A program made the translations under genes and the position numbers. A DNA stretch of 64,000 nucleotides from positions 8,111-72,110 of the forward strand of contig JBBQKN010000012.1 of assembly GCA_038326945.1 (NCBI GenBank). Reading direction: 5' to 3'. Source of the stretch: Hyphomicrobiales bacterium. GTDB lineage: Bacteria > Pseudomonadota > Alphaproteobacteria > Rhizobiales > Methyloligellaceae. Shown here piece after piece: positions 28,448 to 37,347 of the stretch (within the stretch, counting starts at the first letter, position 1; every line of letters begins with the position of its first letter). A model generated the notes under the pieces. That model had not been told where the DNA came from. It did no database searches and was given only the letters and a program-made list of their open reading frames with translations.

Positions 28448-28642
28448 CCTCGATTATCAAGCGGCGCGGGGCCGCTTGCCGCGCGCACGCCGCGGCGCAT
28501 TCGCTTATCAGTGTGCGTTGTAGCGACGCTGCTCGCGCGGCCTTGCGTCGTGAGCGCGCGGGTCTATGCTCTTTCCGCGAAGCTGGAGTCGCCATCCTTA
28601 AAGTGGATGGCCTCCGCAAGGCCCGGAAGGCAGATCCGCAGC

Positions 28643-30028
28643 ATGCCAGAGCTCGATCCCCTACTGCTCTCGCGTATCCAGTTCGCCTTCACCATCTCCT
28701 TCCACATTCTGTTTCCCACCTTCACCATCGGCCTCGCCGCCTGGCTGCTGGTGCTCGAAATGCTGTGGCTCCGGACCGGCAAGCCGGTCTATCTCGATCT
28801 CACGCAGCAATGGACCAAGATCTTCGCCGTGTCCTTCGGCATGGGCGTGGTGTCGGGCGTGGTGCTCTCCTACGAGTTCGGCACCAATTGGAGCGAGCTG
28901 TCGCGGCGCGGCGGCAACGTCATTGGGCCGCTCCTGTCCTACGAGGTGCTGACCGCCTTCTTCCTCGAAGCCGGCTTTCTCGGCATCATGCTGTTCGGCC
29001 ATAAACGCGTGCCGAGAGCCGTGCACGCCTTCGCCACCGCCATGGTGGCGCTCGGCACAGTGATTTCCACCTTTTGGATCCTGTCGGCCAATAGCTGGAT
29101 GCAGACGCCCACCGGCCATGTCGTGGGCGCCGACGGCGTACTCCGCGTCGCCGATTGGTGGCAGGTGATCTTCAACCCTTCCTTCCCTTACCGCCTCACC
29201 CACATGGTTGCCGCAGCCTACATCACGACCGCCTTCATGGTGGGCGGCATCGGCGCCTGGTACATCCTGCGCGACCGCAGCGTCTCGCATGGGCGCGTCA
29301 TGCTCGGCATGGCCTTGAGCCTGCTCGTCTGGCTGGCGCCGCTGCAAATCTTCATCGGCGATCTGCACGGCCTCAACGCGCGGGAGTATCAGCCGGCCAA
29401 GATCGCCGCGATCGAGGCCCATTGGGAGACGAAGAAAGGCGCGCCGCTCATCCTGTTTGCGTGGCCCGATACCAAGACCGAGAGCAACAAATACGAGATC
29501 GCCGTGCCGAAGCTCGGCAGCCTGATCCTGACACATGAGTGGGACGGCGAGATCAGGGGCCTCAAATCCTTCCCCCCCGACGACCGGCCGAATCCCATCA
29601 TTCCCTTCTTCGCCTTCCGCATCATGGTCGGCATCGGCCTGATCATGGTCGCGCTTTCCAGCATTGGTGCGGTGCTGTGGCTCACCGGGCGCCTCTATTC
29701 GACCCGCTGGTTCTTGCACGCGATGATCTGGGCATCGCCGCTCGGCTTCGTCGCCGTGCTCGCCGGCTGGTTCACGGCCGAAGTGGGCCGTCAGCCCTGG
29801 GTGGTCTATGGCGTGTTGCGCACGGCCGACGCGGTCTCGCCCGTTGGCGGCATGAGCGTCCTCGCCTCGATCATCCTGTTCGTGATCGTCTACGGCATCA
29901 TCTTCGGCGCGGGCGCCTATTACATCGCCAAGCTCGTGCGCCGCGGACCCGACCAGACGCCTCCGGTGCCGGAAGAAGAGGACGCGGACGTTTCGCGCAG
30001 ACCCATGGCGGCGGCGGGTAACCCATGA
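28643..30028 (+). CDS. cydA: Cytochrome bd-type quinol oxidase subunit I (short Q-loop, CIO-like)
   Basis: LSRIQFAFTISFHILF, EFGTNW, FFLEAGF, QPAKIAAIE and GWFTAEVGRQPW. Confidence 0.95.
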   Translation: MPELDPLLLSRIQFAFTISFHILFPTFTIGLAAWLLVLEMLWLRTGKPVYLDLTQQWTKIFAVSFGMGVVSGVVLSYEFGTNWSELSRRGGNVIGPLLSYEVLTAFFLEAGFLGIMLFGHKRVPRAVHAFATAMVALGTVISTFWILSANSWMQTPTGHVVGADGVLRVADWWQVIFNPSFPYRLTHMVAAAYITTAFMVGGIGAWYILRDRSVSHGRVMLGMALSLLVWLAPLQIFIGDLHGLNAREYQPAKIAAIEAHWETKKGAPLILFAWPDTKTESNKYEIAVPKLGSLILTHEWDGEIRGLKSFPPDDRPNPIIPFFAFRIMVGIGLIMVALSSIGAVLWLTGRLYSTRWFLHAMIWASPLGFVAVLAGWFTAEVGRQPWVVYGVLRTADAVSPVGGMSVLASIILFVIVYGIIFGAGAYYIAKLVRRGPDQTPPVPEEEDADVSRRPMAAAGNP

Positions 30029-31056
30029 CAGCAGCAAGCAACATGACCGAGTTCCTTCCCGTCATCCTGCCGCTCGCCTGGGCCGCCATTCTTGCGCTCG
30101 CCGTGTTCCTCTATGTGCTTCTCGGCGGCTACGACCTCGGTCTTGGCGTGCTGTTCCCGTTCGCGCCAACGCATCAAGACCGCGATGCGATGATGGGCTC
30201 GGTCTCGCCCTTCTGGGACGGCAACGAAACGTGGCTGGTGCTGGGTGGCGGCGGCCTGCTCGCCGCCTTTCCACTCGCTTATTCGGTGATGCTGCCTGCC
30301 CTTTATTTGCCCATCATCCTGATGCTGATCGGGCTGATCCTGCGCGGCGTCGCCTTCGAGTTCCGCTTCAAATCCAGCACCTATCGCTGGGTCTGGGATC
30401 TCGCCTTCACCGGGGGCTCGATCACCGCCGCGCTGATGCAGGGCATCGTCATCGGCACGTTCGTGCAAGGGTTCAAGGTCGCCGACAATAAATACGCCGG
30501 CGGCGCCTTCGACTGGCTGACGCCGTTCACGCTGGTGACCGCGCTCGCGGTCGTGTCTGGTTACGCGTTGCTGTCGGCGGGATGGCTGATCATGAAGGGC
30601 GACGAGGCCTTGCGCGAATGGGCCTATGGCGTCGCCCGCGTTGCCCTGATCGCGGTCACGGTCTTCATTTTGACCTTCAGCCTGTGGACGCCGCTGGCGC
30701 ACCCGAACATCGCCGCGCGCTGGTTCTCGCCCGGCAATATGGTGATGCTGAGCCCGGTGCCATTGTTCACCGCCGCCACCATTGGCGCGCTGTGGCTCTC
30801 GCTCGATCGCCGCATGCGCTACGCCCCCTTCCTGCTGGCGACTGGGATCTTCCTGCTTTGCTATACCGGGCTCGCGGTGAGCCTGTTCCCCTTCATCATC
30901 CCGCCATCGATCACGCTATGGCAGGCGGCCGCCGCGCCTGAATCGCAGCTGTTCATGCTTTACGGCGCCATCCCGATCCTGCCGATCATCCTCGGCTACA
31001 CCGCCTATTCCTATTACGTGTTCTGGGACGCGACCGAGCACGAGGGCTACCACTGA
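30025..31056 (+). CDS. cydB: Cytochrome bd-type quinol oxidase subunit II
   Basis: GYDLGLG, PFWDGNETWLV and LRGVAFEFR; overlaps the cydA stop. Confidence 0.95.
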   Translation: MTAASNMTEFLPVILPLAWAAILALAVFLYVLLGGYDLGLGVLFPFAPTHQDRDAMMGSVSPFWDGNETWLVLGGGGLLAAFPLAYSVMLPALYLPIILMLIGLILRGVAFEFRFKSSTYRWVWDLAFTGGSITAALMQGIVIGTFVQGFKVADNKYAGGAFDWLTPFTLVTALAVVSGYALLSAGWLIMKGDEALREWAYGVARVALIAVTVFILTFSLWTPLAHPNIAARWFSPGNMVMLSPVPLFTAATIGALWLSLDRRMRYAPFLLATGIFLLCYTGLAVSLFPFIIPPSITLWQAAAAPESQLFMLYGAIPILPIILGYTAYSYYVFWDATEHEGYH

Positions 31057-31166: not shown

Positions 31167-32348
31167 CTACCACTTCCCCGGCAGATCGTGCTGCATCAGG
31201 CGGCGCTTCAACAGCAAGATCTTGCCATAGGCCTGCTCGATGCGCGTCCTGTCGATGCGCCCGTCGCGCGCCGCCTCACTCATGATCGCGTGGATCTTGA
31301 CGCCAAGGTCGGTGTCGCGCGACTTGACGTTGGAGAAGACGAGAAGGTCGGTGCCGGCATTGACGGCGAGGATCACGCGATCTTCGAGCGAGTGATCCAA
31401 TCGCACCGCACCCATCTCCAAATCGTCGCTGACGACGACGCCCCTGAAGCCGATATAGCCCTTGGCGCGAAGCGCATCGATCGCGCGCGCCGAGAGCGAG
31501 GCCGGCAGTCTGTCGCCGTCGCTGAAACGCGGATGGTAGAGGTGCCCGACCATGACCATGTCGAGCAGACCGTCGCGCGACAGGTTCACATAGGGGTCGA
31601 GCTCGACCTCGCGCCAGCTGCGCGTAATGTCGGGAAGCGACTTGTGGCTGTCGCTCCAGCTCGACCCATGGCCCGGGTAATGCTTGGCCGCGGTGACGAC
31701 ATTGGCTTCGCGGTGGGCGGTGATGAAGGCGCCGGCGAGCAGGGTTACGGCCTCGGGGTCGTCGCCGAAACTGCGCTTGCGGCGGACGATGACCGGATTG
31801 CCGGGATTGACGCTGAGATCGACCACAGGGCCGAAATTGACGTTGATGCCGGCTTGCGCCAGCTCCCGCGCCATCCGCGCATAGAGCCGATGCGCGCCTT
31901 CCGGGGTCCGAAGCGCTGGATCGCGCCCGACCTTTCGAGCCGACGGAAATTGGCTGAAGCCGTTTCGCCGCGTCAGCCGCTGCACCAGCCCGCCCTCCTG
32001 ATCCACCGCGATCAGGGGCACCAAGCTCGCATTCGCGTTGTTGAGATAGGCCGTGAGCAGACGAAGCTGGCGGGCCGATCGGATATTGTCGGGATAGAGC
32101 ACCACCCCGCCGATCTCGCCTTTCGCCAGTTGATCGCGCACGGCGATGACGCCAGGGGACCGTTCGCCGTCGCCCTGGAAGCCGACCATGATCATCTGGC
32201 CGATCATGCGGTCGAGCAGATCGTCCGCCTCGACCAGCTGCCGCAAGGTTTCGAGGCCGTCGGGCTCCGCCGCGACGCCATGACGGGCGCCAAGCGCGAG
32301 CATGGCCCCGAACAGAAGGGCGCCGGCCGCAAGCGGCGTCAGTTTCAT
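31167..32348 (-). CDS. nagZ: Secreted GH3 beta-N-acetylhexosaminidase (NagZ-like)
   Basis: Signal peptide, AVDQEGGLVQR, NFGPVVD, RSFG, KHYPGHG-x4-DSH and SDDLEMGA. Confidence 0.85.
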   Translation of the reverse strand: MKLTPLAAGALLFGAMLALGARHGVAAEPDGLETLRQLVEADDLLDRMIGQMIMVGFQGDGERSPGVIAVRDQLAKGEIGGVVLYPDNIRSARQLRLLTAYLNNANASLVPLIAVDQEGGLVQRLTRRNGFSQFPSARKVGRDPALRTPEGAHRLYARMARELAQAGINVNFGPVVDLSVNPGNPVIVRRKRSFGDDPEAVTLLAGAFITAHREANVVTAAKHYPGHGSSWSDSHKSLPDITRSWREVELDPYVNLSRDGLLDMVMVGHLYHPRFSDGDRLPASLSARAIDALRAKGYIGFRGVVVSDDLEMGAVRLDHSLEDRVILAVNAGTDLLVFSNVKSRDTDLGVKIHAIMSEAARDGRIDRTRIEQAYGKILLLKRRLMQHDLPGKW

Positions 32349-32503
32349 GGTTTTGCACCAAAGGCGATCATCACAGGCCTATGGCAGTTCGTTCCGTGAC
32401 GCGCCACTCAAGATGGCTGGATTGCTGATTTTCGGCGGCTGTCGGGGTCGACCGTCCGCCGCGGCATGGTATGGTGCCCCTTCCGAGCCCTAAGGAGCGG
32501 GCC

Positions 32504-34786
32504 ATGCTATCGCGCATTCTCTCCCTGAAATCTGTTGCTACGGTTGCAGCGGCTTTGGCTGTGATCTTGGTCTTGGTCTTGAGCGCTGGCGCCGGCGACA
32601 AGAACAAGAACCGTAATGGCGGAGGCGGCGGCAACAAGCAGGGGCAGAATTGCCCACCGCCGCTGGTGAAGAAGGGCGGCAACTGCGTCATGCCTGGCCA
32701 GGGCAAAGCCAACAAGCAGCAGGGCGGCGGCAAAAACCAAGTCGGCGGACCGCCTGATCGCAACAAGCAAGGCGGCAGGCCGAAGGGGCAAAAGAACCAA
32801 GCCGGCGGACCGCCGGATCGTAACAAGCCGGGTGGCAAACACGGCGGCAAGAACAAGGATAAGGCTGCCGGGCCCCGCGACGACAAGAAGCAGGTCGGAA
32901 AGCCCCCTCGCAACACCCTCGCCGGGGATCGCCAGGGCGGCAAGCCCGATGGCAAGGACAAGGATCAGGCTGGCGCGCCAACTGACGGCAAGAAACAAGG
33001 CGGCAAGGACAAAGACAAGGGGCAGGCCGGCGGGCCCCCTGACCACAACAAGCAGGGCGGCAAGGACCACGGCGGCAAGAACAAGGACAAGGATCAGGCC
33101 GGCGGTCCCGGCGACGACAACAGAGACGGCAAGAAACACGGCGGCAAGGATGGCGACCGGGACCGCGACAACGACAAGGTCGCCGACTGCAAGCGCCCCT
33201 TCGTCTACCGCCGTGGCAAAGGCTGCGTGAAGCCCAATCGCGAGCCCGAGCTCGTCAAATGCCAACATCCGAAGGTCTGGCGCCGGGGCCGGGGCTGCGT
33301 GAGACCCGGGCGTGACCAGGTCTTTTGCGGCTGGCCGATGATCAAGCGCGGCAACTCTTGCGTCTGCGGTCCGGGATTCATCCCGCGCCATGGGGATTGC
33401 TACCGGCCGCCGATTTTCGTGGTGCCGGTTGGACCGGAACCCTATCCCGAAGGGCCTTACCCCGAGGGGCCTTATCCGGAAGGACCTTATCCCGAAGGGC
33501 CTTATCACGACGGACCGCCGCCGGGTCCTGGGCCTCGACCCGGCCCCGGTCCGGTCGATGACGGACCGCCGGATTACGCGCCGGAGCCGCCGCAACAGGC
33601 AGAGCCTGCCCCACCGCCTGAACTGGAGGCCGAGCCGCAACCCGTGGCCGCGCTCGATCCAGCGATCACCAGATGTCTCGCCGACGATCTCTATGATCTC
33701 CTGGCGAAAACCTACGGCAAGCCGCGCGACCTCGACCGCTGCCCTTCCGCCTGCTTGCCCAAGCCGGCATTCTTCAGCCCGGGCGAGCTCGACGACATCG
33801 CCGAGCAGAACGGCATCGATTGGTGCGAGAACTGCGTGCAGGTCGGCGGTTACATCCCGCTGAGTTCGGCTCTGCGGCTCGAGCGCGGCGCCGGCGTCAC
33901 CATCTGCGTCAACCCCGATATGTGCCGGCTGCCAAGCGCGATCCCGGTCGAGCGCCGGTCGGAGATCCGCACCGTGTTCAAGGATTTGCCGGTCGGGGTC
34001 CACAACGAGGGCAATATCGCCGTGGTCGTGGGCAACCAGGATTACCAGGGCGATCTGCCCGCCAATCCCGACGGCTCCGCCGATGCCGATGCGGTCATGA
34101 CGCTTCTGATCGACCAGCTCGGCTACAAGCAGGAGAACATCATCGACCTCCGCGACGCCACGCTCGCCGAGCTGGAGCGCGTATTCGGCGGACGCGGCGA
34201 ACCCGGCGGCGAGCTTGCCAAGCGCATCGACAAGGACAGTCCGGGCGATGTGTTCATCTATGTCGCGAGCCACGGGCTAGTGAAGAACGGCAAAGAAGCC
34301 TACCTGCTCCCGGTCGATGCCGACATCGAGGCTCTCGACCAGACCGCCTATCCGATGCAGGGGCTCTACGACAACCTCGGCAAGCTCGGCGCGCGCACAA
34401 TCATGCTCATGCTCGAAGCCAATTTCGCCCGCAATCTCGACGAGCTGATCGATCCGCCCAATCTGCCCGAGCTCGAGGTCGAAGTGATGCCCGCGACACC
34501 GGTGCCGGGGCTCGCCGTGTTCAAGGCCTCGGACCGCGATCAGAAGACGATCCTCGACCCCGAATACGGCATCGGGCTTTTCACCCGCTACCTGATCGAA
34601 GGCCTGGCCGGCAGGGCCGACGCGGCGCCGATCGGCAATGACGACAAGCGCATCGATACGGTCGAGCTCTATGTCTACACCTCCGACGCGGTGAGGACCG
34701 CGGCGCGGAAGTCGTTCGGCCTGGAGCAGAAGCCGCTCTTGAGCAAGATCGACAATCTGCTGGTCGGCCAGCTCAGCTCGAACTGA
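32504..34786 (+). CDS. Secreted multidomain pseudo-caspase (peptidase C14 fold, catalytic Cys replaced)
   Basis: AAGGAG RBS, signal peptide, G/K/D/Q repeats, Cys hairpins, PEGPY repeats and a Cys-rich domain, then IAVVVGNQDY..DADA, FIYVASHG, YLLPVD, LMLEANF and GLFTRYLIEGLAG. Confidence 0.8.
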   Translation: MLSRILSLKSVATVAAALAVILVLVLSAGAGDKNKNRNGGGGGNKQGQNCPPPLVKKGGNCVMPGQGKANKQQGGGKNQVGGPPDRNKQGGRPKGQKNQAGGPPDRNKPGGKHGGKNKDKAAGPRDDKKQVGKPPRNTLAGDRQGGKPDGKDKDQAGAPTDGKKQGGKDKDKGQAGGPPDHNKQGGKDHGGKNKDKDQAGGPGDDNRDGKKHGGKDGDRDRDNDKVADCKRPFVYRRGKGCVKPNREPELVKCQHPKVWRRGRGCVRPGRDQVFCGWPMIKRGNSCVCGPGFIPRHGDCYRPPIFVVPVGPEPYPEGPYPEGPYPEGPYPEGPYHDGPPPGPGPRPGPGPVDDGPPDYAPEPPQQAEPAPPPELEAEPQPVAALDPAITRCLADDLYDLLAKTYGKPRDLDRCPSACLPKPAFFSPGELDDIAEQNGIDWCENCVQVGGYIPLSSALRLERGAGVTICVNPDMCRLPSAIPVERRSEIRTVFKDLPVGVHNEGNIAVVVGNQDYQGDLPANPDGSADADAVMTLLIDQLGYKQENIIDLRDATLAELERVFGGRGEPGGELAKRIDKDSPGDVFIYVASHGLVKNGKEAYLLPVDADIEALDQTAYPMQGLYDNLGKLGARTIMLMLEANFARNLDELIDPPNLPELEVEVMPATPVPGLAVFKASDRDQKTILDPEYGIGLFTRYLIEGLAGRADAAPIGNDDKRIDTVELYVYTSDAVRTAARKSFGLEQKPLLSKIDNLLVGQLSSN
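33446..33505 (+). repeat. 4 x 15-bp coding tandem repeat (PEGPY)4
   Basis: cccgaagggccttac cccgaggggccttat ccggaaggaccttat cccgaagggccttat; differences are synonymous. Confidence 0.9.
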
Positions 34787-34790
34787 GCAC

Positions 34791-36617
34791 CTACTCCAGC
34801 GGTCTGGCGACGCGGAAGCCGATGACGTTGAGGCGTGACCCCTTGGGGAAGCTCATGCGCGCGGAGGGCCGCGCGAACTCCGCCTCGTAATACCAGGCGC
34901 CGCCCTTGGCCATCCGGCGCTGACAGTCGCCGCCACGGGGAGAGGCATCGGCCGGCGCGCCCGCATGGGTCTGGTTCGAGCAATCCTCCACCCATTCGAA
35001 CACATTCCCCTCCATGTCGTGGAGGCCATAGGGGTTGGGCGGGAAGGAGCCGACCTCGACACTCATGCCCTGATAGGTGCCGGGCTTGCGGCTCGAGGTC
35101 TGACTGCTCGCATCGAAATTGGCTTGCGTGGGTTGAAGCGTCTCGCCCCCAGCGAAAGACGTCGAGGTGCCGCCCCGCGCCGCGAACTCCCACTCCGATT
35201 CCGACAACAGGCGATAGGCCTTGCTCGATTTCTGGCGCAGCCAGTCGACATAGGACTTGGCGTCGTCATGGGAGACATAAATCACCGGGCGGCGGCCCCG
35301 GCCCCAGCCGCCATCCTGCGGGCGATAATTGGCGCAGCCGCCTTCGAGCGCACAAGTCTCCCACTCATCGAAAGTGATCTCGAATTTGGCGATGGCGAGC
35401 GGCGCCGCGACCGTCACCTCGTGCTGCGGCTCCTCCGCCGGCTGATGTCCCTTGTCCGCTTTCGCCGCGCCCATGAGAAAGCGCCCCGCCGGCGCCACCA
35501 CCATGTCCGGGCAGCTCTCGCAATCCCTGAAAGTCGAGCCGACCTCATGCTCGAGCGGGCCTGAAATAATTGGCGCGGAGGTCCCCGGCTTCGGCATCAC
35601 CGGCAGGGCCCCAATTTGCGTCTTGGTCGCGCGCAACACCGCGAGCAGGCTCGGGGTGACCTGCCCGTCGGCGGTCAAGCCGGCCTTGGCCTGGAAGCGC
35701 TTGACCGCGTCTTCAAGCGCATCGTCGCCGCTACCCCGGCTCGTCTCGCTGATGAAGCCGAGCTGTTTGAGAATGGCGCGCGTCTCGGTGAGCGCGGCCT
35801 GATCGCTGAGCACGCCTTCGGGCGGGAGCGCGAGCGTCGTCTCGCCGCAGCCCGTGGCGTCCAGACAAACTTTCGGGGAGCCGCCACGCGTGGTGATCTC
35901 AGGCACCTGGCTGCCGCGCGAGGCGACACGAACGTCCCTCGCCGTGAGCTCGAGCAGATCGCGCAGGAACAGGCGGGGATGCTCGTCGAAATTCTTGAGC
36001 AGGGATTGGGCGAAGGGCGAATGACTGCCTGAATCCCCATCCGCCGCGAGCTGACCCGACAGCGTCGCGTTGGCGATCAGAAGCGCGCGGTCTTCCTCCG
36101 TGAGCCGGGAGAAGCCGCGAAAGCCACTGCCGGCATTGGCGCCGCGCGACGGGCATTGCGGAAACGGATTGTTGCGGCAAGCATCGAGCAGCACGATCTG
36201 CTGCGGCGCGGGGCCGGCGGCGGCGAAGAGCTGATCGAGCTCGATCGCGCGGATCGTGGTCTTTTTCGCGCATTCGATCTCCATGTCGGTCGGCGCCACC
36301 ACGTTCTTGCCGTCGATCTCCATGCCGTGCCCGGCGTAGTAGACGAGCGCCACCTCGGCGCCTTCCGCCTCGCGCTTGAACCCCTCCAGCGCGTCGAGCA
36401 GATCGGCGCGGGCGAGGTCGTAATGCTCGGAGACGGCAAAGCCGTGTCTCTTCAGCTCCGCCGCGATGGCCTTGGCGTCGGACACGGGATTGTCGAGGCT
36501 GGAGAGATGCTGGTACGCGCCGATGCCGACGATAAGCGCCACGCGCTTACCTTCCGCGGCGGCCGGCAGCCAGGCCGAGACGACAAGCATTAGCGCTGCG
36601 ATCAGGGTACGAAACAT
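34791..36617 (-). CDS. Secreted caspase-like (C14) protease + peptidoglycan-binding domain + FGE/SUMF1-like domain
   Basis: Signal MFRTLIAALMLVVSAWLPAAA; ALIVG, L.NP.SDA, YYAGHG, LDACRNNPF; PGBD-like LKQLGF..AVKRFQAKAGLTADGQVT; FGE motifs RPVIYVS, RLLSESEWEFAARGG, NPYGLHDMEGNVFEW and IGFRVAR. Confidence 0.85.
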   Translation of the reverse strand: MFRTLIAALMLVVSAWLPAAAEGKRVALIVGIGAYQHLSSLDNPVSDAKAIAAELKRHGFAVSEHYDLARADLLDALEGFKREAEGAEVALVYYAGHGMEIDGKNVVAPTDMEIECAKKTTIRAIELDQLFAAAGPAPQQIVLLDACRNNPFPQCPSRGANAGSGFRGFSRLTEEDRALLIANATLSGQLAADGDSGSHSPFAQSLLKNFDEHPRLFLRDLLELTARDVRVASRGSQVPEITTRGGSPKVCLDATGCGETTLALPPEGVLSDQAALTETRAILKQLGFISETSRGSGDDALEDAVKRFQAKAGLTADGQVTPSLLAVLRATKTQIGALPVMPKPGTSAPIISGPLEHEVGSTFRDCESCPDMVVAPAGRFLMGAAKADKGHQPAEEPQHEVTVAAPLAIAKFEITFDEWETCALEGGCANYRPQDGGWGRGRRPVIYVSHDDAKSYVDWLRQKSSKAYRLLSESEWEFAARGGTSTSFAGGETLQPTQANFDASSQTSSRKPGTYQGMSVEVGSFPPNPYGLHDMEGNVFEWVEDCSNQTHAGAPADASPRGGDCQRRMAKGGAWYYEAEFARPSARMSFPKGSRLNVIGFRVARPLE

Positions 36618-36804
36618 GACGGTTCGCGCCTTTCGACTCGCGCAAAGCCGGGCCTCGGCAAGCCAGCTTTGAGGATGCGAACCTAACATTGGCACGCCTC
36701 GGCGCCCAGACCAGAGGGAAGGTGCCGCTTTTGCCATGATTGTGAATAGACTGGCGCGGCAGGGGCTTCTGAATCCCCGCGGCATGAAGCGTAGGGAACC
36801 CGCG

Positions 36805-37347
36805 ATGCAGCGCACTCTTTCCCAGCTTATTCCCCTGGCGGCTTTGGCCGCCTCGCTCGCGCTTCCGCCTGGGACCGCACGCGCGGAGCCCAAGCCGCCG
36901 AGCGAAGAGGAATCCGCCGACGCCGATTTCGCCAAGAGCTTCATCGGCAAGAATTACGACGGCGACCTCGAGATCGAGGGCTGGGGCGATTTGGGCGGCG
37001 GCCTCGTCTCCGCCCAGGTCTTTGTCCACCAATATCAGCGCGAGGATGGCACCTTCCTGGTACTGACCAGCCGCCAGCTCGACAAGGGATCGAGCGGCTC
37101 CCCCGCCAATTACGAAGTCGCCGATGCCCTGATCGTGCCGCCGCCGCAATCGGGCGTCGAGTTCACCATCTCCTGCGTACAAGGCCAGGACCCGACGCTC
37201 CGCTTCATGGGCGAGGCCAAGGGGCCCGAGACCAAGGAATGGTGGACCGAGGTCCGGCGCGCCTGGGAAATCTCGATCGAGACCGGCCAGATCTCAGCGG
37301 CCAAGACCAAGGGCGTGCGCTGCACCAATGTGAGTTGGGGGCAGTAG
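36805..37347 (+). CDS. Hypothetical secreted protein with two Cys
   Basis: Signal peptide ending TARA; beta-rich body; AWEISIETGQI..VRCTN C-terminus. Confidence 0.7.
   Translation: MQRTLSQLIPLAALAASLALPPGTARAEPKPPSEEESADADFAKSFIGKNYDGDLEIEGWGDLGGGLVSAQVFVHQYQREDGTFLVLTSRQLDKGSSGSPANYEVADALIVPPPQSGVEFTISCVQGQDPTLRFMGEAKGPETKEWWTEVRRAWEISIETGQISAAKTKGVRCTNVSWGQ

Follow-up and report, generated by a model that had tools for sequence, protein, structure and literature searches.

Caspase homologues are numerous in bacteria; to our knowledge almost none of them has a known role, and we know of no pseudo-orthocaspase with a known mechanism. The pseudo-caspase c-FLIP acts by forming a heterodimer, for which it uses its death-effector domains and the interface through which caspases dimerise. 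In Trypanosoma brucei, the pseudo-metacaspase MCA4 is processed by the active MCA3 within one pathway (cited in PMC6426788). Pseudo-orthocaspases, prokaryotic p20 homologues in which at least one residue of the His-Cys (HC) dyad is substituted, are established in cyanobacteria, as the original prediction stated; they are not confined to that group, having already been described in Alphaproteobacteria/Rhizobiales (582 sequences; Klemencic et al. 2019, PMC6426788). The gene analysed here lies in a 64,000-nucleotide stretch of DNA from a Hyphomicrobiales bacterium, the whole of which is referred to as the window, and encodes a predicted caspase-like domain from which the nucleophile has been lost.

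Domain layout and the former active site

The gene (32504..34786, + strand) encodes a protein of 760 amino acids from the ATG that is also the start of the database protein P0001 (MLSRIL). An upstream ATG gives a longer open reading frame of 771 amino acids (32471..34786, +), and residue numbers throughout refer to this 771-residue frame (ATG at 32471). The N-terminus contains a putative hydrophobic signal or anchor read from the sequence (MLSRILSLKSVATVAAALAVILVLVLSAGAG; 32504..32596, +), and the orthologues all begin in a similar way, with a basic and then a hydrophobic stretch; the protein is apparently exported. The following low-complexity half, delimited on the translation (32597..33646, +), is variable and combines PYPEG repeats with a K/G/D-rich tract and short basic Cys-x10/11-Cys units, with orthologue medians of 13% K+R, 12% G and 13% P. 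A Pfam search of this half of the window protein gave no match; in more distant orthologues (55–65% identity; precomputed Pfam) the same position is occupied by PG_binding_1. A clade-specific Cys-rich domain (residues 393–492; 33647..33946, +) is joined by a conserved linker motif, EIRTVFK (33962..33982, +; R500 at 33968–33970), to the C-terminal p20-like domain (residues 508–771; 33992..34783, +), which is recognised by Pfam C14, an NCBIfam caspase family and Foldseek.

With a score of 25.6 bits, Peptidase_C14 (PF00656) passes its cut-off of 21.4, but the match covers only residues 516–624. The NCBIfam family NF047832 (caspase_w_EACC1) aligns over 3–209 of its 211 positions at 41.9 bits, under its curated 140-bit cut-off. 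Searches of PDB sequences with the domain alone or with a four-sequence profile returned no caspase match; the structural link to caspases came only from the model. In the AlphaFold2 model, the core has pLDDT values of 85–97, and Foldseek aligns it to MALT1 paracaspase, the yeast metacaspase Yca1 and caspases with E values of 1e-9 to 1e-6 and a TM score on the target of up to 0.66–0.72. The pseudo-caspase domain, as modelled, has a caspase-like fold. An hhalign comparison with the caspase domain of the neighbouring gene product (see below) gave 41% probability, in an alignment that ends just before strand 4, short of the catalytic Cys column.

The position of that column was set by aligning 150 library representatives to the family profile. 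It is filled by Asn651 (AAT; 34421..34423, +) within LMLEANF, a codon two substitutions away from TGT/TGC, whereas the 86–87 nearest active relatives have Cys there and read hhhDACFS (the DACFS motif) after GHG. The proposed equivalence of EAN in this protein with DAC in active enzymes is therefore right. Across 120 orthologues (55–100% identity) the column contains Asn in 79, Thr in 28, Ser in 11 and Asp and Glu in one each, and Cys in none; Gly and Ala also occur in the wider pseudo clade. A scan of the caspase domain (residues 501–771) found no Cys at all, and hence no substitute Cys from within this domain. With Asn651 in the Cys column and no other Cys in the domain, the protein is a member of the caspase fold but not a cysteine peptidase, and its H-N dyad fits the published definition of a pseudo-orthocaspase (PMC6426788).

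Other parts of the old site are retained. His601 (CAC; 34271..34273, +), which was correctly read within FIYVASHG, keeps the catalytic position, with the His of SHG aligned to the GHG His of the 86 active relatives. The residue ahead of the catalytic Cys in active enzymes (the D of DAC) is Asp in 97% of the active relatives; here it is replaced by Glu649 (GAA; 34415..34417, +), a replacement shared by every one of the 120 orthologues and by 96% of sequences in the wider pseudo clade. Asp538 (GAT; 34082..34084, +) lies in a 'DA' motif; all active relatives (100%) have Asp there, as do 91% of close-family sequences and 67% of those in the wider pseudo clade. These two residues correspond by motif to Asp211 and Asp95 of TbMC2, respectively, which bind the basic residue in the specificity pocket (PMC6426788). 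Asp538, the first acid, and Glu649 are thus presumed, from motif position rather than superposition, to be the acids of the S1 pocket.

The same residues raise the question of whether the protein is still an enzyme that uses another mechanism at the old site, with His601 acting with Glu649 or with the Asn, Thr or Ser at 651 in hydrolysis or self-cleavage. His601 is present in 119 of the 120 orthologues, Glu649 is invariant among them, the residues found in the Cys column of the close family are all polar, and the surroundings of the site are strongly conserved. However, free variation is seen in the nucleophile column, which in the wider clade extends to Gly and Ala; His is kept in only 51% of that clade, where L, Y, Q, W, K, R or F replaces it in about half of the members; and the SG that follows Cys in active enzymes is missing from the pseudo clade. 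We know of no precedent for such non-Cys chemistry in a caspase fold and regard this explanation as very improbable.

A single ancient loss and the signature of the clade

The Cys-less sequences, at least 54 representatives at the 50% identity level and so a lower bound on the size of the group, are monophyletic (SH-aLRT 100) and nested within active DACFS enzymes. A single ancient loss of Cys defines this pseudo clade. The sister active clade has the architecture PG_binding_1 + C14, and the pseudo clade appears from its sequences to have originated from active peptidoglycan-binding orthocaspases. These active enzymes are the closest sequence relatives (160–190 bits against the family profile) and have in common with the pseudo clade the C-terminal caspase domain, the motifs GLFT and AD..GN.D...E, and an N-terminal peptidoglycan-binding region. 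They differ in having no Cys-rich domain and in keeping YSGHG.P, DACFSG and Q.ASWD. Relatives of the window protein are labelled Methyloceanibacter and Bauldia, neither of which is known to be phototrophic.

Close pairs of pseudo-caspase genes have dN/dS values of 0.04–0.25 (0.19 between the window gene and locus L005), showing purifying selection. Together with the modelled fold, this agrees with the predicted picture of a structurally maintained pseudo-caspase. The only observation in favour of a recently inactivated or decaying allele of a normally active caspase, or of a sequencing error, is that this single sequence lacks the Cys. Such a reading is refuted by the orthologue column, dN/dS and the tree: since no orthologue has the Cys, the orthologues are not normally active and the loss was one old event, and the reading frame is uninterrupted over 760 codons, with two substitutions needed to restore the codon. 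We give this explanation practically no weight.

The clade is marked by more than the missing nucleophile. The Cys-rich domain comprises ∼100 residues with six or seven Cys; C402, C424, C428, C452, C455 and C479 are kept clade-wide and C485 in the close family only. All 46 pseudo-clade representatives whose upstream sequence is long enough have the domain, and none of 47 active relatives does; its arrival coincides exactly with the loss of the nucleophile. It matched nothing in Pfam or among PDB sequences. Its model (pLDDT 70) shows three beta-alpha units, for which Foldseek found no match (best E 0.028, TM 0.2). Within the caspase domain, the change from Asp to Glu ahead of the lost Cys is accompanied by the novel invariants P663, N664 and R706. 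Pro663-Asn664 (34457..34462, +) belong to the DPPNLPE loop adjoining the former active site and are found in 88–100% and 98–100% of pseudo-clade members, respectively; neither is conserved in active relatives. In the close family, the linker has R500 in 95% and T501 in 98%, at columns gapped in 94–99% of active relatives; the model is of low confidence here (pLDDT <50 over model residues 87–115). One old event may have combined the loss of Cys, the Asp-to-Glu change, the remodelling of the loop beside the site (DPPNLPE, R706) and the insertion of the Cys-rich domain ahead of the caspase domain.

The neighbouring protease and possible roles

On the opposite strand, tail-to-tail with the pseudo-orthocaspase and with the two stop codons 4 bp apart, lies a gene (34791..36617, −) for an intact orthocaspase (YYAGHG, LLDACR). 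Pfam identifies C14 (109.6 bits), PG_binding_1 (39.3 bits) and an FGE-sulfatase-type domain (163.3 bits) in its product, and the N-terminus at MFRTLIAALMLVVSAWLPAAA is signal-like, making this partner putatively exported as well. Because the genes are convergent they are not co-transcribed, and a promoter and terminator scan around the pair gave nothing usable. The partner is not a recent tandem duplicate of the pseudo-caspase: it is a remote outgroup (branch length 3.2) with DACR rather than DACF.

Of 25 informative orthologous loci, 24 have the partner on the downstream side in convergent orientation, at distances of 10 bp to 3.4 kb. On the other side of the pseudo-caspase, a divergent gene for a GH3 (NagZ-like) glycosidase with a signal-like N-terminus (31167..32348, −; Pfam Glyco_hydro_3, 190 bits) is found upstream in loci with ≥72% identity in the pseudo-domain and is absent at 60–67%; the partner's adjacency survives in loci of 60–66% identity where this synteny is gone. 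The deeper pseudo-clade members L061, L067 and L073 have the partner adjacent as well. The H/C dyad is kept in the nine loci with a readable partner caspase domain (L005, L007, L008, L010, L024, L025, L028, L061 and L073); in L067 no dyad motif was seen in the automatically chosen frame. Among 301 genomes of the order, a partner orthologue occurs in six, and five of the same six have a close pseudo-caspase; in the other, G265, the pseudo gene is not detectable. Five genomes of the same genus that lack a close pseudo-caspase also lack the partner. The adjacency among relatives is owed partly to plain vertical inheritance.

The surrounding genes are housekeeping ones (cydAB, GH3 and lipid-synthesis genes). 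PADLOC defence models gave no match for the pseudo-caspase and only the generic caspase model, at 55 bits, for the neighbour; a defence island is rejected on these findings.

Rather than the product of a broken gene, the protein is probably a partner that binds or regulates without cutting, since it is kept by selection, has a constant Cys-rich domain and usually neighbours an intact protease. It keeps the caspase fold and the old catalytic His, and Asp538 and Glu649 would preserve an Arg/Lys-binding S1 pocket as in metacaspase-type enzymes; lacking a nucleophile, the protein most likely binds basic peptide segments and leaves them uncut. In this lineage, the pseudo-caspase seems to have been inherited jointly with the adjacent orthocaspase/PG-binding/FGE-type protein, and our preferred reading is that both act jointly in the periplasm, where the dead paralogue would hold substrates without cleaving them, compete with or regulate the live protease, or itself be processed by it as a substrate. 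We therefore lean, with some reserve, towards an exported, envelope-associated pseudo-orthocaspase that binds basic peptides without cutting and acts with the adjacent protease, in other words a wall-associated Arg/Lys-peptide binder; here we infer the export, the ligand binding and the interaction with the neighbour. The putative scaffold, decoy or regulator role suggested at the outset is now backed by the conserved gene for an active protease next door. More tentatively, the two proteins may form a dedicated periplasmic system in which, at the cell wall, the dead paralogue gates or targets the live protease or is cut by it, with the Cys-rich domain as an interaction or sensing module.

The pseudo-enzyme could instead function independently of the protease, as a wall- or envelope-tethered ligand-binding or receptor module; a component of the envelope would be bound by its Cys-rich domain together with the remodelled pocket, and the adjacency would be historical. 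A caspase-FGE neighbour is missing from eleven deeper clade loci, including a paralogous HS type from the same genus, and the pseudo clade as a whole is therefore not dependent on the partner. The Cys-rich domain and the novel invariant loop are clade-wide and the partner is not, the two genes are convergent, and in the L002/L003 orthologue the partner was not found within 8 kb. Against this stand the adjacency in nearly all informative orthologous loci, which outlasts the surrounding synteny, and the near-coincident phyletic profiles. We consider an independent module rather unlikely, and continue to favour a binder that cooperates with its neighbour.

Comparison with known systems

The window clade resembles the Rhizobiales pseudo-orthocaspases (PMC6426788) in belonging to the same order, in its p20-type domain with an incomplete HC dyad, in conservation as clades and in the presumed retention of acidic pocket residues; for the published proteins, too, a non-proteolytic role as scaffold or competitor was proposed. 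It is set apart from them on comparison with their published common features: their common dyads are YS, YA, FS, QC and HA, whereas the window clade has H with N, T or S; their p20 domain is N-terminal, with long C-terminal tails and TPR or trypsin partners, whereas here it is C-terminal, behind an obligatory Cys-rich domain. The window clade further differs in the Asp-to-Glu change at the presumed pocket, apparent export and an intact caspase-FGE gene as conserved neighbour. The published proteins were tied to phototrophy (PMC6426788), and the Methyloceanibacter and Bauldia labels of the window relatives point to alphaproteobacterial pseudo-orthocaspases without that tie.

The family offers a defined, testable case, with a single old nucleophile loss and a pocket seemingly still able to hold basic residues, and with a conserved intact protease adjoining it in one lineage, both proteins apparently being exported. 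If the two proteins cooperate, the pair would give a simple bacterial model for the control of live proteases by dead ones. Like TbMCA4 and MCA3, it would bring together an active caspase-fold protease with Arg/Lys specificity and its catalytically dead paralogue; TbMCA4 differs in being eukaryotic and cytoplasmic or membrane-associated, in its YS dyad and in that the genes are not adjacent. Like c-FLIP (CFLAR), which regulates its active paralogue caspase-8, the window protein would be a pseudo-caspase with the fold kept, but it has no DED-like domains and its neighbour is only a remote paralogue. Metacaspase-type enzymes, and bacterial ortho-/metacaspase-type domains generally, are usually monomeric, which weakens a heterodimer model in the style of c-FLIP. 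A dedicated two-protein system, if true, would nevertheless be a bacterial envelope counterpart of these pseudo-caspase/caspase pairs.

Loss of the catalytic cysteine from an intact caspase fold

The pseudo-caspase ORF (32471..34786, + strand) encodes 771 residues, or 760 from the database start at 32504. The codons of the catalytic dyad are as originally noted: the histidine is retained in FIYVASHG (His601, CAC at 34271-34273, + strand), and the nucleophile position in LMLEANF reads Asn651 (AAT at 34421-34423, + strand), two substitutions from either Cys codon. The Pfam Peptidase_C14 match is weak (25.6 bits, residues 516–624) and ends just before the Cys position; NCBIfam caspase_w_EACC1 covers residues 517–742 at 41.9 bits, far under its cut-off. 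The AlphaFold2 model of residues 393–771 has a core pLDDT of 85–97 and matches the MALT1 paracaspase, yeast and plant metacaspases, and animal caspases in Foldseek (E 1e-9 to 1e-6), bearing out the prediction of a preserved caspase fold.

Searching 1.84 billion representative proteins with a profile built from four caspase domains gave 14,588 hits, of which the best 150 were aligned to the profile. GHG and hhhDACFS are present in 86–87 of these 150, with the Cys in the Asn651 column and the Asp in the Glu649 column; the proposed replacement of DAC by EAN is therefore sound. Proteins scoring above this DACFS set among the same 150 all read hhLExxF. At the His position they carry H, which more distant members may replace with L, Y, Q, W, K, R or F; at the Cys position they carry N, T, S, D, G, E or A. 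This variability makes residual or novel catalysis improbable. Residues 501–771 contain no Cys, so the caspase domain itself offers no substitute for the lost nucleophile. A profile match from the active group, P0162 (684 aa), contains two tandem caspase domains with H-D and H-C dyads, a dead and a live copy fused in one chain.

Across 120 orthologues (55–100% identity; labelled Methyloceanibacter, Bauldia, Methyloligellaceae or Hyphomicrobiales), the Cys column reads N in 79, T in 28, S in 11, and D and E in one each. All 120 share Glu649 and Phe652, and 119 keep the His. dN/dS over the Cys-rich and caspase domains is 0.04–0.25 (Nei-Gojobori, pairs with dS < 0.6), and 0.19 between the window gene and its nearest relative, L005, consistent with the predicted selection for structure. 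In an IQ-TREE phylogeny of 142 domains, the Cys-less sequences, all but one, form a single clade (54 members, SH-aLRT 100) with a long stem (0.75), nested within the active DACFS enzymes; the caspase domain of the neighbouring gene described below is a remote outgroup. The nearest active sister group combines one or two copies of PG_binding_1 with a C-terminal C14 domain. The absence of Cys from all 120 orthologues, the low dN/dS and the single clade all argue against a decaying allele of a normally active enzyme, which we regard as having next to no chance of being correct. The window gene encodes an old, selected, nucleophile-free protein of caspase fold, which supports its reading as a pseudo-enzyme.

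Residues and domains accompanying the loss

Column statistics show that the pseudo clade lacks YSGHG.P, the SG after the Cys and Q.ASWD of the active set, and has gained near-invariant Glu649 (96–100%) and Pro663-Asn664 (88–100%); Pro674, Arg706, Pro720, Asp729 and Pro755 are further near-invariant gains. Asp538 of the DA motif, GLFT and the AD..GN.D...E segment are common to both groups. By motif position, Asp538 and Glu649 are the presumed equivalents of Asp95 and Asp211 in the Trypanosoma brucei metacaspase TbMC2, a pair that binds the basic P1 side chain and is reported to be retained by other pseudo-orthocaspases (Klemencic et al., 2019; PMC6426788).

A Cys-rich domain of ~100 residues precedes the caspase domain in all 46 pseudo representatives whose sequence extends far enough upstream, but in none of 47 active proteins. 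Six of its cysteines are clade-wide (C402, C424, C428, C452, C455 and C479), with C485 additional in the close family; searches of Pfam, PDB sequences and Foldseek gave no match. It is joined to the caspase domain by a conserved EIRT(I/V)FK motif, which is absent from active relatives and lies in a stretch left disordered by the model. The same Cys-rich domain occurs in a second, paralogous type of pseudo-orthocaspase (SGHG, LLES(S/E)FG; dyad H-S or H-E). This type is present in most genomes of the genus (L041–L044, L046 and L057, in G293, G237, G133, G172, G040 and G092), and has no caspase-FGE neighbour; no copy turned up in the genome from which the window comes.

The N-terminus of the pseudo-caspase, like that of its orthologues, is basic and then hydrophobic, as in a signal or anchor sequence. 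It is followed by a K/G/D-rich, polycationic low-complexity half of ~350 residues (32597-33646, + strand) with short Cys-x10/11-Cys basic units and PYPEG repeats. The length of this half differs greatly among orthologues, and in more distant ones its place is taken by PG_binding_1, which suggests that one wall-binding device may have been swapped for another. From these features, we infer that the protein is probably exported and wall-associated.

A conserved convergent neighbour with an intact dyad

A signal-bearing GH3 (NagZ-like) gene lies upstream in divergent orientation; the cytochrome bd oxidase genes cydA and cydB (28511-31053) lie just upstream of it, and the three keep their order in the relative L001. 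Downstream, the convergent partner gene (34791..36617, − strand) encodes 608 residues that begin like a signal sequence and include PG_binding_1, an FGE-sulfatase-type domain and a caspase domain that is intact (YYAGHG, LLDACR). Only 4 bp separate the two stop codons (34784-34793), so the transcripts must either overlap or end in a common terminator region. The gene divergent from the partner (36736-37347) encodes a 203-aa protein whose N-terminus resembles a signal sequence and which has no Pfam match; it is conserved in this position (59–78% identity) only among close relatives.

Among species-representative genomes and metagenome contigs, the partner lies convergently downstream in 24 of 25 informative orthologous loci, with a gap of 10 bp to 3.4 kb, including loci of 60–66% identity where GH3 synteny is gone; the sequences of L011 and L019 stop too early to be scored. 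No partner occurs within 8 kb at L002/L003. The H/C dyad is kept in the nine loci with a readable caspase domain, and no dyad motif was seen in the automatic frame of the L067 partner. Partners at L024 (3443-5125) and L025 (10844-12511) have diverged caspase domains (31% identical to that of the window partner) yet retain the dyad, and their FGE domains are 61% identical; the protease domain looks to have been replaced, or to be evolving fast, on a conserved FGE domain.

Of 301 sampled genomes of the order, five have a close pseudo-caspase and six a partner orthologue, including the same five, and five same-genus genomes without the former also lack the latter. These genome counts, like the locus counts, involve relatives, and the search scores few candidates per genome, so they are supportive and not statistical proof. 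One same-genus genome, G265, carries a partner (C43:10998-13654, L078; 80% identity) but no detectable pseudo-caspase, either in the 833 bp between it and the contig end or, at E 1e-45, elsewhere in the assembly. Across the orthologous loci, the pseudo-caspase has a conserved, intact protease neighbour. Deeper members of the pseudo clade have a caspase-FGE neighbour in three cases (one co-directional) and none in eleven. These eleven favour a binding function independent of the partner, an explanation against which the 24 convergent loci weigh and which we consider unlikely, though clearly less so than catalysis.

Relation to known pseudo-caspases

Relatives of the window pseudo-caspase are labelled Methyloceanibacter and Bauldia, which to our knowledge are not phototrophs. 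With that lifestyle, they would not fit the link between pseudo-orthocaspases and photosynthesis drawn by Klemencic et al. (2019; PMC6426788). As that study lists 582 alphaproteobacterial pseudo-orthocaspases (96% Rhizobiales), the kind is already known; its dyads are YS, YA, FS, QC and HA, its architectures are unlike the present one, and it contains no genomic-context analysis. The variant described here, with an H plus N/T/S dyad, D-to-E replacement, obligatory Cys-rich domain, likely export and conserved active partner, was not found in the literature searched.

A scaffold, decoy or allosteric regulator was originally proposed. The pseudo-enzyme part of that proposal is upheld by the 120 Cys-less orthologues, and the role is still conjectural. 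Once exported, the protein would bind basic peptide segments without cutting them. It may work with the partner as holder, competitor, regulator or processed substrate, much as the pseudo-metacaspase TbMCA4 works with MCA3, or c-FLIP with caspase-8, each pairing a dead caspase-fold protein with an active one.
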